Of a stretch of 64,000 bases of DNA, positions 7,166-12,138 are shown piece after piece (the first letter of the stretch is position 1; every line of letters starts with the position of its first letter). The translations under genes were made by a program, and so were the position numbers. The stretch is from Candidatus Thorarchaeota archaeon (lineage in GTDB: Archaea > Asgardarchaeota > Thorarchaeia > Thorarchaeales > Thorarchaeaceae). Where the stretch lies: contig JBHIAE010000009.1 in NCBI GenBank assembly GCA_046758445.1, positions 8,788 to 72,787 of the forward strand, in the 5' to 3' direction. Below the pieces are notes generated by a model. The model was given only the letters and a program-made list of their open reading frames with translations, did not search any database and had not been told where the DNA came from.

Positions 7166-8749
7166 TCATATGAAGCTTTCACGACTCCTTCCCCTCCAGA
7201 CGACGAGTGCGGCCGCTAACACCGAACAGGCAAGGAGCGAGATGGAAGAGGCAGAAAAGGCAAATCTCAGATCATCTGAGATGTTCTTGATGGAGTACTT
7301 TGAAATGACGACGATTGAGTCAATAGAATCGGAAATGTTGCTCATCAACGAGAACGAACACCAAACCTCGAACACATATTCCCCATCGAGTAGGTTATGA
7401 GTATTGACATCCACTTTCCAGTCTAGATTGCATTCACCCAATGGGACCCCTTTGATGGTGATCGGCTGAAAGGATGGATCTCGCATGCTCTCAACACGCA
7501 CGTATACGGATGTGAGTCTGTAAGGCTTGTGATTCTGGGCTATTGTACAGGAGTTGAATACCACATGAAAGTAGACCTTGTCGAAAATGAAATCTTTTTG
7601 AGCTACTTTGGTTCCATTCTCGTAGAAGAGACCTGTGTTTGCTTCGTAAGTCGAGTCTTCCCAGAAACTCCAGTTCCCAACACTTCCCGTAAGAGCATAC
7701 CTGACTGCACTCACAAGGAATGCCTGCATGAACTCTACGCTACTGATTACATCGCTTGCCATTATGCCCGAGTGAAAGACGCTTCCACTACCGTACCAGT
7801 GCTGATAAGCCGCAATGGGCTCGTCGGGAGCCTCATTCGGATTCTTGAAGTGCCAATACCCGATTATCTCAGTGTTTGTGAGATTCTCCAGCTTGTTCTC
7901 TTCATGAGCTCCGTAGGGACTTTTTATGTTCTCACCATAGTTACATCTGATGTAGTCGCTAATCGGGTGGGATGTGTTGGCAAAGAAATAGTCATAGTGT
8001 TGACCGCTCCAGTAGGTCCAGAAGTTGCTACCAACCCAGTTCCTGTTCTCTTCGGGCCACCTGTGAAAGTCTGACTTCCAAGCATGTGTCCCATTGAACT
8101 CCCATCCATGGCCCTTTACAAGGCTGAGATACCCGGGCTCTTCGGGTGAGCCAGATGGATGGTATTTTACTTCGGCGAGGAAGTTGCATGCATCCATTAT
8201 GATGAGGGTACCACCTGTTTCAACAAATCGCCTGTAGGCAATGTACTCTTCAGCAGTAACGTACTCAGTAAACCCGAGTATGACTGCATCGTATGCTCTC
8301 CTCCCGTCCTGAAACAGCGCACCCATTGTAACGTTGATCTCGTCAATTAGTGCAACACTCTCACAGAGGCCCACACCTGCCAAACGCGCCTTAGGACTGT
8401 TTAGGAACGTGTGGAGTCCTGTGCTCCATTGCCACCCAGATTTGACCGTTACATTAAGCCAGTCTAGATCTGTGGTTATGTAGGGCTCATTGCTATGTCC
8501 GTACTTCCAATAGAAATTATAGAATGCACTCGAATACGCAGTGTCCGAGAAGATAGGTTTGACGACAGCGACCCTCAGCTCGTTCTCTGATGATACAGTT
8601 GAGGAGGAGGCACCGGACTTCTGGACTTCTGACAGCCTTGACACTGCCGAGTCATGAGCCGCTATTAGTGCAACTGAAGAGCTACCGAAGGCAACGATTA
8701 GGGTGACCAAGATTGCTACAGAACCGAGGGATAGTCTGATAGGCCTCAC
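7166..8749 (-). CDS. exported, membrane-anchored protein with an N,N-dimethylformamidase beta-subunit-like domain
   Basis: N-terminal signal and C-terminal TM. 'KPIFSDTAY' and 'EYVTAEEYIAYRRFVETGGTLIIM' resemble DMFase large-subunit C-terminal family motifs. Confidence 0.6.
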   Translation of the reverse strand: MRPIRLSLGSVAILVTLIVAFGSSSVALIAAHDSAVSRLSEVQKSGASSSTVSSENELRVAVVKPIFSDTAYSSAFYNFYWKYGHSNEPYITTDLDWLNVTVKSGWQWSTGLHTFLNSPKARLAGVGLCESVALIDEINVTMGALFQDGRRAYDAVILGFTEYVTAEEYIAYRRFVETGGTLIIMDACNFLAEVKYHPSGSPEEPGYLSLVKGHGWEFNGTHAWKSDFHRWPEENRNWVGSNFWTYWSGQHYDYFFANTSHPISDYIRCNYGENIKSPYGAHEENKLENLTNTEIIGYWHFKNPNEAPDEPIAAYQHWYGSGSVFHSGIMASDVISSVEFMQAFLVSAVRYALTGSVGNWSFWEDSTYEANTGLFYENGTKVAQKDFIFDKVYFHVVFNSCTIAQNHKPYRLTSVYVRVESMRDPSFQPITIKGVPLGECNLDWKVDVNTHNLLDGEYVFEVWCSFSLMSNISDSIDSIVVISKYSIKNISDDLRFAFSASSISLLACSVLAAALVVWRGRSRESFI

Positions 8750-8901: not shown

Positions 8902-9357
8902 TCAGGATCTCATGAGAAGGAGAACATCTTCGGCTACGCTATCTAGAAGGCTCTTGATTCGTGGATGTAGACCTAACGTTTCTATTGCGTCTGGATGAGC
9001 CCATATGACTTCGGCATCTTCATGTTCAGGAACTAGGTAGAAGGAGGATGCGCGACAAAGATAGTGGTTGAGCACGAAGTGGTACTCCACCTTCCCGTTT
9101 GAGTCAAGAGTTATGAGATCGGCAGTGCTCACAAAGCGAAGAACCTCACATTCCACGCCTGTTTCCTCCAAGACTTCTCTTTTCACAGCTTGTTCCTGCG
9201 TTTCACCAATCTCCACCGCACCACCAGGAATGCTTAGGACACCTTTGCCGGGATCCTTGTCACGCCTACCCAGTAGAACACCTTCTTGTCCAACAACAAT
9301 CGCCCCGACTCCAATAATAGGACTAGAAGGATACCGTCTATCACTCATGATACTCAC
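8902..9357 (-). CDS. NUDIX hydrolase
   Basis: Nudix box 'GGAVEIGETQEQAVKREVLEETG'. Confidence 0.92.
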   Translation of the reverse strand: MSIMSDRRYPSSPIIGVGAIVVGQEGVLLGRRDKDPGKGVLSIPGGAVEIGETQEQAVKREVLEETGVECEVLRFVSTADLITLDSNGKVEYHFVLNHYLCRASSFYLVPEHEDAEVIWAHPDAIETLGLHPRIKSLLDSVAEDVLLLMRS

Positions 9358-9374: not shown

Positions 9375-10550
9375 TCACACACCAGCTAATCCAGAAGGCA
9401 TCCGAATGAGTGCTCCACATTCAGAACATATACGGTCAGCATAGATATCAAAACCGACTTGCTCAGAATATGGAAGACGCTCTTCACAACCACACACTTC
9501 ACAGAATGTCTTGACGTAGCTCCTCAACTCGAATGCAACGCGCCAGGCATTCCTTGAGTGCTCCAGGAGCCCAACTCGATCATATTGTTTTGCCAGTGCA
9601 ACCCAAGGTGCCGCAGAAGTTGGGTCTGCCCGGGTCCATTTCACCAGACAGTCAATGAACTCCTCTTCACGGCCCAGCATCGAATACGCATAGCAAAGCC
9701 CTCTCCAATTCTCGACGTCCTTATCGACGAGGGATTCAGCTCTCCTAAGACACTCTTCCGATGCCGTTTCTTCGTGAACATTATGGAACAAGACTGCGAG
9801 CCGAGACAGGGCTTCAACGCTTTCTTGATCCTGCTCTAGGACTTCAGAGAAGCATTCCCTGGCCCCTTCATGCTCGCCCGATTGAAATCGAAGCTCACCG
9901 AGAAGAATCAGTGACCTGTAATCTCGTGGGGCGAGTGTGTGGGCGTGTCCAACAAAGGGTGCAGCCTCGTATGTCCTACCTAGAGTCAGCATGAGAAAGG
10001 CATAGTTCGAAACAGCCGCCATAAGCCGTGGCTCAAGTCGATGCAACGACTCCCATTCCTGTGCTGCTGCTGTGAAGTCTCCAAGCTTATAGAGCCCGAG
10101 CGCGTACATGGCACGGATGTCAATACTGTTTGGAAATCTCTCAATTGCATCCTTTAGTGTACTAGTGACCTCACTATACTTGCGCTTTTTGTACAATATC
10201 TTACCGAGGTCCCCCCAAGGTTCTGCATGATAGGGATCAAGGCGTATGGAACGACGAATCTCTACTTCGGCATCCTCCAGTTTACCTAAAATCATCAATG
10301 CCCGACCCAGAAACATTGACAGGACACAGTGTTCCTCAACCAAATCCTGAGCTCTTTCCAGAACTTCAACTGCCTTCTCTGGCTGTTCGTTCTGCACGTA
10401 AGCTATGCCCAGATATACAAGAACATCAGCTTCTTCATTCTCGTCATCCACAATTGGCTTGAGTATCTCAATGGCGTCACTTGGTCGCCCCTCTTCAAGA
10501 GCGAGAACTGCACGCGCGATACTCTCATCTGTCAATTCGACATCCGCCAT
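9375..10550 (-). CDS. TPR repeat protein with a C-terminal zinc ribbon
   Basis: Many 34-aa TPR-like repeats; C-terminal 'CEVC...CSEC'. ATG 10550 preferred; ORF is open to 10613. Confidence 0.85.
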   Translation of the reverse strand: MADVELTDESIARAVLALEEGRPSDAIEILKPIVDDENEEADVLVYLGIAYVQNEQPEKAVEVLERAQDLVEEHCVLSMFLGRALMILGKLEDAEVEIRRSIRLDPYHAEPWGDLGKILYKKRKYSEVTSTLKDAIERFPNSIDIRAMYALGLYKLGDFTAAAQEWESLHRLEPRLMAAVSNYAFLMLTLGRTYEAAPFVGHAHTLAPRDYRSLILLGELRFQSGEHEGARECFSEVLEQDQESVEALSRLAVLFHNVHEETASEECLRRAESLVDKDVENWRGLCYAYSMLGREEEFIDCLVKWTRADPTSAAPWVALAKQYDRVGLLEHSRNAWRVAFELRSYVKTFCEVCGCEERLPYSEQVGFDIYADRICSECGALIRMPSGLAGV

Positions 10551-10632
10551 TGTTCCTGCCGGTAGTGATGCCAAAGTGGATACTACTCTGGCGTCTGGAC
10601 CACCGCGTATCATATTATAAGAACCTCTGGTT

Positions 10633-11499
10633 ATGGCAAAGATAATGGTCGAAAGAGATTATGCTACCCCCTTCTCAGTACTCCGTGCAGCCAGTATGCT
10701 CAGCCATCACTCGAGATTAGCCAAGTTCAACAAAGCTCTACAGACTTTAGTCAACGAAGACAGCTACGTCGTTGATATCGGTACTGGAACTGGAGTCTTG
10801 GCATTCATGGCTGCAAGAGCCGGAGCGCGTCGCGTGACTGGTATTGACATAAACGGAAGATCAGTTGAATACGCCAGAAAGGCTGCAAGAGAGAATCAAC
10901 TTGACGGTGTGGTCGACTTCAGAACGCTCCATTTCTCGGATTTCTCACCCGACATACCAGCTGACATTGTGATTTGTGAGATGCTTTCAGCGATTATGCT
11001 AATTGAACAACAGATTCCTGCAAGTCGGAATGCAGTTCACCGGATTCTTGCCTCCAACGGAGTCATCCTTCCTCAAAGTGTCACAGTATATGTCGTGCCG
11101 GTTGAGTGCGGTTCTGTATGGGAGAGGTTTCAGGTAGAGAGCCTTCACTTCCCGAAAGTCCCCCAGACAGTGGATAGGAGTACGGCCACGGACCTATCCG
11201 ACCTTGCAATTCTGACCGAGTTTGATCTCTTCAGCGAAGAATGTCCCACTCGAGTTGACAAGACCTTGGAATTCACCGTAGTTGATGAAGGGGTGGTTCA
11301 TGGACTTGTGGGGCTATTTGAAGCCCAGCTCTACAATGACATTGTGCTGAGAATGGAAGATGGATGGAGGGAGCTCTTCATTCCTTTCGAAGAGCCCATC
11401 GAGGTGTCTAGAGATGATCTGCTCCGGATCAGGTTAAGATATGTCCCCGGAGTCTACGACTCATTGTCCGTAGAGAATCTGGAAGATAGTTCGAGTTAG
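10633..11499 (+). CDS. SAM-dependent methyltransferase, protein-arginine-methyltransferase (PRMT)-like fold
   Basis: Motif I 'VVDIGTGTGVL', post-I 'VTGID', double-E loop 'ICEMLSAIMLIE', beta-barrel 'VHGLVGLF', THW-loop equivalent 'DGWRELF'. Confidence 0.8.
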   Translation: MAKIMVERDYATPFSVLRAASMLSHHSRLAKFNKALQTLVNEDSYVVDIGTGTGVLAFMAARAGARRVTGIDINGRSVEYARKAARENQLDGVVDFRTLHFSDFSPDIPADIVICEMLSAIMLIEQQIPASRNAVHRILASNGVILPQSVTVYVVPVECGSVWERFQVESLHFPKVPQTVDRSTATDLSDLAILTEFDLFSEECPTRVDKTLEFTVVDEGVVHGLVGLFEAQLYNDIVLRMEDGWRELFIPFEEPIEVSRDDLLRIRLRYVPGVYDSLSVENLEDSSS

Positions 11500-11544: not shown

Positions 11545-12138
11545 CTATTTCTCCCCCACAAAGGTCCCTGGTGGATATGTTTCCATGAACTCCTCTCTCA
11601 GAATGTCCATAATGAGAAGGTCGTGATACTCCCCGGCCATGTACTCCGTTTTGCGGAGCAGTCCGACCCTCTTGAAACCGCATTTCTCGTAGGCCCGCAC
11701 AGCTCTCTCGTTGTCAGTAAAAGAATCTAGATAGATGCTACGAAGACCGAGGATGTGAAATCCTATCCAAAGCATGACTCTTGTTGCATCTGTACCATAG
11801 CCCTTTGAACGATGCACGGGGTCGTAAATTGAAACCCCCAGTTCTGCTCGACGATGTGGACTCCTGATGTCCTCAAACCTGGCTATCCCAAGGAACTCAT
11901 TGTTCTCTTTGTCAGCTATGGCCAAAGTCAGGCAGCCGTCTTTCCATGGGTCTGTCTTTGAAGCCCAGTCGAACCACTCCTTCCTTGATGACCTCGAACT
12001 CGGGATAGGAACACCAATCGTCCTCCGGAGTTCCCATGTGTTCCAGTACTTCAGAATGACGTCCAAGTCAGGCGGTTCCAAGGCTCTCAGGCAGACCAGT
12101 TCTCCGTAGTACATATGAGCCGAGAAGCCAGCTGCCAA
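11545..12138 (-). CDS. GNAT N-acetyltransferase (RimJ/RimL/SpeG-like)
   Basis: 'RSKGYGTDA' and 'NERAVRAYEKCGF'. Confidence 0.9.
   Translation of the reverse strand: MAAGFSAHMYYGELVCLRALEPPDLDVILKYWNTWELRRTIGVPIPSSRSSRKEWFDWASKTDPWKDGCLTLAIADKENNEFLGIARFEDIRSPHRRAELGVSIYDPVHRSKGYGTDATRVMLWIGFHILGLRSIYLDSFTDNERAVRAYEKCGFKRVGLLRKTEYMAGEYHDLLIMDILREEFMETYPPGTFVGEK

Follow-up and report, generated by a model that had tools for sequence, protein, structure and literature searches.

A predicted PRMT-fold methyltransferase encoded divergently from a TPR/zinc-ribbon protein in one thorarchaeal order

Results

Organization of the locus

The window analysed here is a 64,000-nucleotide stretch of a Candidatus Thorarchaeota genome. 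Within it, two long open reading frames (ORFs), 10633..11499 on the plus strand and 9375..10613 on the minus strand, are transcribed away from each other, as an earlier note made from the sequence had described. The plus-strand frame encodes a putative methyltransferase (MT, below), for which an identical called protein of 284 aa exists in the public record (P0001). The opposing frame encodes a tetratricopeptide repeat (TPR) protein ending in a zinc ribbon. The features of the region are collected in Table 1.

Table 1. Features of the MT locus (positions in the window)
Feature	Position	Strand	Remarks
Predicted PRMT-fold SAM-dependent methyltransferase (MT)	10645..11499	+	Likely start 10645 (M5), 284 aa; longest ORF from 10633, 288 aa
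Motif I, VVDIGTGTG	10768..10794	+	Glycine-rich SAM-binding loop; residues 46-54
Post-I, RRVTGIDIN	10828-10854	+	Acidic residue D72 at the end of strand 2
Double-E loop, CEMLSAIMLIE	10975..11007	+	Two Glu (E116, E125) nine residues apart
DGW, counterpart of the THW loop	11359..11367	+	Trp (W245) retained; Thr and His replaced (D243-G244)
C-terminal beta-barrel domain	11080..11496	+	Residues ~150-288; Pfam PRMT5_C; strands in the model; PRMT structural matches over residues 8-287
TPR + zinc-ribbon protein	9375..10550	-	Likely start M22 at 10550, 391 aa; longest ORF to 10613, 412 aa
C4 zinc ribbon (CEVC ... CSEC) and conserved MPxGLA tail	9378..9518	-	C-terminal; C371, C374, C396, C399
NUDIX hydrolase gene	8902..9357	-	17 nt downstream of the TPR gene, same strand; Pfam NUDIX 2.4e-18
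TTATAA, TATA box of the MT gene	10615..10620	.	Conserved position; possibly serves both divergent genes
ATGGCAAA, conserved element	10633..10640	+	~12 nt upstream of the likely MT start; codons 1-3 of the longest ORF

The intergenic space between the two genes had been thought to be very short. The 19 nt in question separate the longest ORFs and for this reason are probably an artefact. Alignments of TPR protein orthologues begin near residues 22-27, and residues 1-25 of the structural model of this protein have pLDDT values below 50. The true starts are probably M5 for MT and M22 for the TPR gene, leaving a spacer of 94 nt. The gap between aligned starts ranges from 43 to 559 nt, mostly 80-110, in 36 other loci, and the 19-nt gap is confined to the source genome and its two closest relatives.

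The palindromic TTATAA pointed out in the earlier note turned out to be a conserved TATA box rather than a chance palindrome. Spacers were extracted by motif from 32 of 44 loci tried (12 gave no extraction, and two of those kept duplicate others); in 31 of the 32, a TATA-like hexamer begins 29-32 nt upstream of the ATG equivalent to M5. The MT gene would thus be transcribed from this box, and its mRNA probably begins at 10645, without a leader. The sequence at 10633..10640 reads (T)ATGGCAA(A/T) in the majority of these spacers; loci L059 and L060 have GGGGAAAA instead, and locus L013 has ACGGCAAA. It may be a promoter-proximal element.

MT is predicted to adopt the PRMT fold

Motif I, post-I, the double-E loop and a Trp at the position of the THW loop, all claimed for MT at the outset, are present where they had been placed. 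Glycines G50, G52 and G54 of motif I are invariant in an alignment of 86 rows (A1), and the column of D72 holds Asp or Glu in all 86. Multiple Pfam methyltransferase models match MT. Among barrel models only PRMT5_C passed its cut-off, on residues 150-268 (38.2 bits against 30.3), which together with the structural model described below bears out the earlier proposal of a PRMT-type beta-barrel. When MT was compared with PDB sequences using phmmer, the top match was PRMT1 (E 2e-14, 56.7 bits), with the same spacing of the two Glu residues. A profile of the MT clade matched PRMT7 (1.5e-29), PRMT9 (4.6e-27) and AtPRMT10 (3.6e-26).

The AF2 model of MT has a pLDDT of 94.5 and a pTM of 0.90. Its top Foldseek matches are all PRMTs (E 1.5e-24 to about 6e-21), as are the best 15 VIA-align matches (Z 28.5-21.6), which extend over residues 8-287 (~270 residues). 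Below the PRMTs, Z falls to 15.5 for Rossmann-only enzymes, with ~140 residues aligned. Structure prediction followed by Foldseek, the check suggested along with the original claim, thus returned the two-domain PRMT fold with its barrel and both catalytic Glu. In the model, then, MT is a PRMT-fold protein, composed of a Rossmann domain and a C-terminal beta-barrel. Segment 159-191, at the site of the dimerisation arm in eukaryotic enzymes, is modelled as a single 7-residue helix.

This assignment is at odds with the public names of MT orthologues, which are "predicted RNA methylase" or "L11 methyltransferase", the latter on most records. MT does share the Rossmann methyltransferase domain with PrmA, the ribosomal protein L11 methyltransferase (Pfam PrmA, 3.1e-14 over this part). 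Its scores against the NCBIfam prmA equivalogs are around 45 bits, far below the cut-offs of 183-188 (TIGR00406, 45.4 against 183.15). PrmA structures align over the Rossmann part only (~137-140 residues, Z 15.0-15.2), without the barrel, and MT lacks the PrmA N-terminal domain, having the PRMT barrel instead. We consider it very improbable that MT is PrmA; the PRMT-fold assignment corrects what appears to be a widespread misannotation under both labels.

A conserved but altered active site

None of 33 MT orthologues departs from Glu at either position of the double-E loop (E116, E125), and the two residues align with both Glu of PRMT1, PRMT7, PRMT9 and AtPRMT10; among 68 wider relatives, Glu occupies these columns in 60 and 56 sequences, respectively. 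W245 falls on the loop Trp of PRMT9 in the alignment, and R28, the Arg of the ML.D..R motif, is kept and is likewise invariant in the 33 orthologues. Around these residues the clade departs from its relatives. The DGW triplet is invariant in the 33 orthologues, while the corresponding columns in the 68 wider relatives contain T in 43, H in 44 and W in 59. Residue 25 is Gln or His across the clade, in place of the Asp of ML.D..R (66/68 wider relatives), and the Gly of the double-E loop (61/68) has become Ser. Because of these clade-wide changes (T-H to D-G, Asp to Q/H, loop Gly to Ser), the active site of MT must be regarded as non-canonical.

It seems conceivable that these replacements have moved the specificity of a PRMT-fold enzyme off arginine, for example toward Lys, Gln, His, an N-terminal amine or RNA, and the names in the public records could be cited in the same sense. 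Set against this reading, which we judge unlikely, is the invariance of both guanidinium-clamping Glu residues and of the loop Trp. Moreover, DGW is aligned against TCW and SHW of PRMT9, and PRMT5 has FSW at the THW position. Losing Thr-His is compatible with arginine methylation, because the PRMT9 catalytic module itself reads TCW; the His is not universal among accepted PRMTs. Arginine is probably the target of MT, as far as can be told from the conserved residues.

Relatives of MT and taxonomic distribution

The locus had been proposed to represent an Asgard module, a description that proved too broad. An MT orthologue is found in 79 of the 86 other genomes of the order (78/85 in family f1 and 1/1 in family f2), as a single-copy gene, and in none of 310 genomes from other families of the phylum, one of which, f22, holds a different PRMT-like protein. 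The nearest full-length named relatives of MT, from a search for related loci seeded with a 12-row MT alignment, are bacterial, including proteins of Streptomyces and other Actinomycetota. Since this is so, the MT pair does not qualify as an Asgard-wide or eukaryote-ancestral module. In a FastTree tree carrying no labelled eukaryotic sequences, and from which three rows longer than 480 aa were dropped, the thorarchaeal MT clade sits among bacterial relatives. By sequence comparison, MT belongs to a mostly bacterial family, in which it forms a lineage-specific branch.

Members of this prokaryotic PRMT-like family align with MT over the full length at 25-35% identity, the best of them scoring 98-109 bits against 56.7 bits for PRMT1. 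They are 300-420 aa long, and most keep THW, the Asp and an SExxGxxxxxE loop, which set them apart from MT. The only source names found for ten second-tier relatives are "protein arginine N-methyltransferase 1" and a quinol methylase label. One relative, P0193, out of 12 longer ones scanned, carries a TPR array fused to the PRMT core. A scan of 5,325 candidates at E <= 1e-10 brought up no longer or fused form of the MT clade itself, a result of little weight. Neither a TPR/zinc-ribbon nor a NUDIX neighbour of the present type occurs at any of 75 non-thorarchaeal loci.

The bacterial affinities of MT raise the question of whether its substrate might be free L-arginine or another small guanidino compound, the TPR protein being unrelated to catalysis. 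The PRMT fold is presumably shared by SznE, a protein of the streptozotocin cluster. SznE is described as an arginine methyltransferase that produces omega-N-methylarginine for natural product synthesis (PMC12637814), and shows that arginine N-methylation chemistry exists in prokaryotes. Two further observations fit such an activity for MT: its conserved neighbours include a NUDIX hydrolase and a phosphoribosyltransferase, both small-molecule enzymes, and RG/RGG-rich proteins (at least 4 RG in 30 aa) account for only 2 of 10,347 ORFs, one of them of 50 aa, so that substrates of the eukaryotic type are almost absent. The genetic context of SznE is different. SznE belongs to a small-molecule biosynthesis cluster, whereas biosynthetic-cluster genes are found around MT neither in the window nor at five far loci. 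MT is furthermore present in most genomes of the order in the manner of a housekeeping gene, and its pairing with a protein-binding TPR scaffold is obligate. We hold methylation of a small guanidino compound to be quite unlikely. As between protein and free arginine, a protein substrate for MT has roughly an even chance.

The TPR/zinc-ribbon protein and its pairing with MT

The neighbour of MT is indeed a long TPR/zinc-ribbon protein, as had been proposed: it matches Pfam TPR_19 (9.6e-27) and other TPR models and ends in a CxxC...CxxC arrangement, with all four Cys kept in each of 35 orthologues. Most orthologues are 386 aa long. The AF2 model (pLDDT 90.8) comprises 20 helices at residues 22-364, followed by beta strands at 366-381, and we infer that the C-terminal domain binds metal. 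Searches of the PDB with the TPR profile, and of 48,161 chains with the model, returned generic TPRs only (CTPR, OGT, BBS4, CTR9, APC subunits), and PRMT9 was absent from the best 60 PDB matches of the profile. The NUDIX gene adjoins the TPR gene at most loci, and the two are probably co-transcribed.

A divergent TPR neighbour is present at 38 of 39 MT orthologue loci; at the 39th, the contig ends 86 nt upstream. The expectation that the neighbour would be conserved was accordingly borne out by the synteny survey. The TPR gene also has the same phyletic range as MT (75/85 genomes of f1 and 1/1 of f2). Most of the 38 loci are nonetheless not independent of each other, since the whole region of ~20 kb is collinear within f1. 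Independent support comes from two lineages in which flanking genes have been lost. In f2, the NUDIX-TPR-MT trio has been retained despite the loss of the phosphoribosyltransferase gene (PRT) and of most other flanking genes. In L061, TPR, MT and PRT are retained without NUDIX.

The collinearity within f1 leaves room for another explanation, in which the pairing reflects inherited gene order and a shared promoter region, with no functional meaning, and the TPR/zinc-ribbon protein has some other role. This would sit well with the resemblance of the TPR and NUDIX genes to a single transcription unit, and with the promiscuity of TPR domains, given the generic matches of this one. It accounts less readily for the survival of the pair in f2 and L061, where different flanking genes were lost, for the restriction of both genes to the same order, or for the TPR-PRMT fusion in P0193. 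We regard inherited order as an explanation that is possible, yet not a likely one. A functional link between MT and the TPR protein is itself held tentatively, at a little under even odds. Prediction of a complex between the TPR/zinc-ribbon protein (residues 22-412, 35 rows) and MT (33 rows) scored 0.00 and 0.02, with the mark set at 0.32, which provides no answer either way.

Discussion

Proposed function of the pair

The results can be accommodated in the following scheme. Motif I, the acidic D72 and R28 of MT would bind SAM, while E116, E125 and W245, all three invariant, would clamp a guanidinium group. The likeliest reaction is therefore the N-methylation of arginine at its side chain, with a protein or peptide as the most likely substrate. 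The divergent gene would supply a superhelix of ~10 TPRs ending in a C4 zinc ribbon. The pairing is kept wherever MT occurs and therefore the TPR/zinc-ribbon protein would most likely act in the same process, either as the partner recruiting substrates to MT or as the substrate itself. To the complete chain (a PRMT-fold MT, arginine methylation in a protein or peptide, and a TPR partner in the same process) we assign a probability of about 0.42. A more specific version, in which the pair constitutes a two-gene protein arginine methyltransferase whose TPR/zinc-ribbon component recruits protein or RNP substrates to a minimal, re-wired PRMT core, must be considered doubtful.

Comparison with known PRMTs

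By profile, the best matches to MT are PRMT7 and PRMT9 (PDB 4c4a, 8rbk, 6pdm, 7rbq; structural Z 25.4-27.6), in which the motif Arg, both Glu of the double-E loop and the loop Trp are aligned with their MT counterparts. These enzymes consist of two tandem modules, whereas MT is a single module of 284-288 aa, and they have THW or TCW and the conserved Asp where MT has DGW and Q/H. PRMT9 has N-terminal TPRs, and the MT clade profile matches the 830-aa chain of 8rbk from residue 140 on, consistent with this arrangement. There, TPRs and a duplicated catalytic module are joined in one polypeptide; in the thorarchaeal locus, the TPRs are encoded by a separate divergent gene, together with a zinc ribbon, and the PRMT9 TPRs show no specific similarity to them. 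The tightest superposition is obtained with the core and barrel of PRMT5 (PDB 4g56, 7mx7, 9mgr; TM 0.80-0.81, rmsd 2.6-2.8 over 288-292 columns, Z 28.1), at ~19% sequence identity; MT has neither the TIM-barrel N-terminal domain nor a MEP50-type partner.

Implications

The occurrence of MT in one order and its grouping with bacterial relatives deprive it of the bearing on the origin of eukaryotic PRMTs that the earlier note had hoped for; its placement agrees with the published view that PRMTs emerged from a bacterial radiation. To our knowledge, methylation of protein arginine at the guanidino nitrogens is seen as an essentially eukaryotic modification. Our literature searches returned no characterised archaeal enzyme for this modification, and no paper on an Asgard or thorarchaeal PRMT-fold enzyme or on its pairing with a TPR protein. 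The term "PRMT" is absent from the main text of a 2026 preprint (10.64898/2026.07.02.735847), whose supplementary tables might list such families.

MT thus stands out as a compact, highly conserved, single-copy PRMT-fold enzyme of one Asgard lineage with a fixed candidate partner, and with two small soluble proteins the proposal is directly testable. Should the two-gene reading prove true, archaea would have their first defined system for the N-methylation of protein arginine, and the combination of TPRs with a PRMT, known from animal PRMT9 and from bacterial fusions, would recur here independently, split over two genes.

The METHYLTRANSFERASE ORF encodes a PRMT-fold methyltransferase

Both divergent ORFs of the earlier note, one for a methyltransferase (MT) and one for a TPR/zinc-ribbon protein, are present exactly where it placed them, and every MT motif that it listed was found (VVDIGTGTG, RRVTGIDIN, CEMLSAIMLIE and DGW).

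Features of the MT gene and its surroundings in the window
Feature	Position	Strand	Remarks
527-aa ORF	7166-8749	-
NUDIX hydrolase gene	8902-9357	-
TPR/zinc-ribbon ORF	9375-10613	-	412 aa; divergent from MT ORF
Likely start of TPR protein (M22)	10550
TTATAA palindrome	10615-10620
MT ORF	10633-11499	+	288 aa
Conserved element ATGGCAAA	10633-10640
Likely start of MT (M5)	10645
GNAT acetyltransferase gene	11545-12138	-	between MT and phosphoribosyltransferase (PRT) genes

Against Pfam, the MT matches generic Rossmann methyltransferase models, PrmA being the best (3.1e-14), and its residues 150-268 pass the PRMT beta-barrel model PRMT5_C (38.2 bits, against a cut-off of 30.3). A prmA identity is not supported: the NCBIfam equivalogs score 45 bits, far under their cut-offs of 183-188. 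PRMTs account for 59 of the best 60 PDB sequence matches listed, the other being a cyclopropane-fatty-acid-synthase-like methyltransferase; PRMT1 is the top match (2e-14), with E116 and E125 aligned to both glutamates of the double-E loop. The public annotation is wrong: the MT is a PRMT-fold methyltransferase, encoded by the sole full-length PRMT-like gene of this genome (3.25 Mb, 92.7% complete).

The AF2 model of the MT, built from 86 sequences, has a pLDDT of 94.5 and a pTM of 0.90. All top Foldseek matches were PRMTs (E from 1.5e-24 to about 6e-21), PRMT5 chains superposing most closely (rmsd 2.6-2.8 over 288-292 columns). When the model was compared with 48,161 chains using a second, independent aligner, 15 PRMT entries ranked highest (Z 28.5-21.6, 266-286 residues aligned, covering about residues 8-287); next below, at Z 15.5 and with about 140 residues aligned, came Trm5, PrmA and other Rossmann-only enzymes. 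With PRMTs placed first over both domains, these matches establish, at the level of a prediction, the two-domain PRMT architecture of the MT, including the beta-barrel claimed from the sequence.

Residues R28, E116, M117, L118, S119, E125, Q127, D243, G244 and W245 are invariant in 33 MT orthologues. In an 86-row alignment of the MT and its relatives, 68 rows of which lie outside the Thorarchaeial (Thor) clade, these outside rows have R in the R28 column (67/68), E (60/68) or D (8/68) in the E116 column, and E in the E125 column (56/68). Their THW-loop columns hold Thr in 43/68, His in 44/68 and Trp in 59/68. At the Asp position of the ML.D..R motif, 66/68 have D and the Thor clade has Q or H; the loop Gly, found in 61/68, corresponds to S119 of that clade. 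Aligning the clade profile to solved PRMTs gave the same residue correspondences; there the catalytic module of PRMT9 reads TCW, so the THW His is not universal among PRMTs. Thus, the Thor-clade MT keeps the guanidinium clamp and the Trp within surroundings re-wired in a clade-specific manner. In PRMT1, the THW-loop His pairs with the Asp of ML.D..R, and the loss of both in the Thor clade may be a coupled change.

Gene starts and promoter

Orthologues of the TPR/zinc-ribbon protein are mostly 386 aa long, starting near residue 27 of the 412-aa ORF; tblastn alignments begin at residues 11-35, except in the two closest genomes, and residues 1-25 of its AF2 model have pLDDT below 50. The MT is called as 284 aa. 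Starts at M22 and M5 give a spacer of 94 nt instead of 19, and the very short intergenic space described previously probably does not hold. The palindromic TTATAA is present as reported. Motif-based extraction, tried at 44 loci and failing at 12, left 32 spacers (two rows duplicating others); in 31 of these a TATA-like hexamer, mostly TTATAA, begins 29-32 nt upstream of the M5-equivalent ATG, the exception being the locus from family f2 (L021). Archaeal promoters obey a rule for the spacing between TATA box and start. From the hexamer's position, the TTATAA is best read as the putative TATA box of the MT gene, whose transcript would be leaderless or near-leaderless.

The element ATGGCAAA, with equivalents in L002-L060, is conserved across genera and lies about 12 nt before the probable initiation codon. 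Some gene calls include it in the protein, as the N-terminal extension MAK(I/L/M)M; it may act as a promoter-proximal element or be a genuine alternative start.

The MT is paired with a TPR/zinc-ribbon gene

That the divergent neighbour is a TPR/zinc-ribbon protein was borne out by matches to many TPR Pfam models and by a C-terminal end (CEVC...CSEC) whose four Cys, like W337, W357, R364 and Y366, do not vary among 35 orthologues. The AF2 model (pLDDT 90.8) has 20 helices between residues 22 and 364, followed by a small beta-rich domain. Its structural matches are extended TPR superhelices of a generic kind (BBS4, Z 22.8; designed CTPR, 22.6; OGT TPR domain, 22.6), and PRMT9 is absent from the best 60 PDB matches of the neighbour's profile.

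The TPR/zinc-ribbon gene is adjacent and divergent at 38 of 39 orthologous MT loci, the window's own counted; the 39th has merely 86 nt of contig upstream. In family f1 the entire region of about 20 kb is collinear, so its loci are not independent evidence for the pairing. Two lineages are informative. In f2 (one genome), most neighbours including PRT are lost from the 20-kb region and NUDIX-TPR-MT is still contiguous; L061, a Thorarchaeota MAG locus, retains TPR-MT-PRT and lacks NUDIX. The constant unit is TPR-MT, and conservation of the TPR neighbour, for which a synteny survey had been proposed, is upheld. At L061:3989-4823 the MT orthologue is divided between ORFs of 259 and 126 aa in two frames that overlap; either the gene is a frameshifted pseudogene or the assembly is at fault.

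The phyletic ranges of the two genes coincide. The MT occurs in 78/85 f1 genomes, in the single f2 genome and, a different protein of family f22 apart, in 0/310 genomes of other families; the TPR/zinc-ribbon protein occurs in 75/85 and 1/1, and outside f1 and f2 its query drew one generic TPR match that left the zinc ribbon uncovered. Where a genome has one gene of the pair only, a contig edge or a fragment is involved. No TPR/zinc-ribbon or NUDIX homologue lies within 4 kb at any of 75 loci of non-Thor relatives. A scan of 12 longer relatives revealed a single TPR-PRMT fusion (P0193, 519 aa); the combination thus recurs in the wider family. Other fusion partners exist there too: the metagenomic relative P0242 (669 aa) joins an N-terminal NTP_transf_5 nucleotidyltransferase domain to its methyltransferase domain.

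The NUDIX gene, on the same strand as the TPR gene and 17 nt downstream, is probably co-transcribed with it. The GNAT gene (Acetyltransf_3, RimJ/RimL-like) occupies its site in 10 of 39 orthologue loci only, all of the window's own genus, and is an insertion outside the conserved block. The 527-aa ORF, which has a hydrophobic stretch near its N-terminus and a DMFA2_C match too weak to pass the cut-off (8.6e-4), is missing from all five distant syntenic loci, where the genes on either side of it do have counterparts; it looks like a lineage-specific insertion.

Relatives and origin

An exhaustive search with the MT returned 7,050 representatives at E <= 1e-3 and 7 at E <= 1e-30. Beyond the Thor clade, scores drop to about 1e-26, with proteins of 300-420 aa aligning end-to-end at about 30-35% identity; PRMT5_C is matched by 80 and PRMT_C by 65 of the 86 aligned sequences. 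Full-length relatives in named genomes are bacterial (Acidobacteriota, Actinomycetota, Cyanobacteriota, Verrucomicrobiota, Myxococcota, Planctomycetota and others), with a few archaeal ones. In a FastTree tree of 101 rows (SH-like support, several long branches flagged, no labelled eukaryotes), the Thor sequences form a single clade (support 99), which groups (94) with an uncultured archaeon, an actinomycete and a gammaproteobacterium, apart from a metagenomic group with SEW.GY (PRMT1-like) and from the f22 Asgard proteins.

The f22 protein (417 aa; L049:5974-7227, + strand, also L050 and L051), present in 3/3 genomes, is 30-32% identical to the MT, looks unrelated and branches off separately in the tree, on a long branch. 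Its double-E region contains SEPISNLLLEG, SPIFAPI comes after a PSW loop, and the C-terminus is extended by about 130 aa. No TPR gene lies next to it; its neighbours include a HEPN/nucleotidyltransferase pair and an Obg/DRG-like GTPase.

Judged from these comparisons, the MT occurs in a single Thorarchaeial order and has its relatives among bacterial PRMT-like proteins. This does not fit the earlier note's Asgard module and argues against Asgard-to-eukaryote descent through this gene.

Function and significance

The methyl acceptor is most likely a guanidino group, because the clamp residues are conserved. The fixed TPR partner and the housekeeping-like, single-copy conservation suggest a protein or peptide substrate. 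RG-dense ORFs number 2 of 10,347 in the genome, which counts against a eukaryote-like substrate pool. Free arginine is a real alternative, since SznE, a characterised bacterial arginine methyltransferase, acts on a small molecule (PMC12637814).

One of the two RG-dense ORFs, the sole substantial one (C69:418-1596, + strand), encodes a 392-aa multi-pass membrane protein whose tail has two GRGRG...W(W/R)QGDW(G/D)KR repeats; its candidacy as a substrate of the MT is speculative.

Our literature search found no paper on a Thorarchaeal PRMT-fold MT or on its TPR pairing. A 2026 Asgard chromatin preprint reports finding no complete histone methylation pathway, and PRMTs go unmentioned in its main text (10.64898/2026.07.02.735847).

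The MT is a real, well conserved and misannotated protein, a clade-specific active-site variant with an obligate TPR/zinc-ribbon neighbour. It is valuable not for eukaryogenesis but as a clean experimental way into archaeal arginine methylation.
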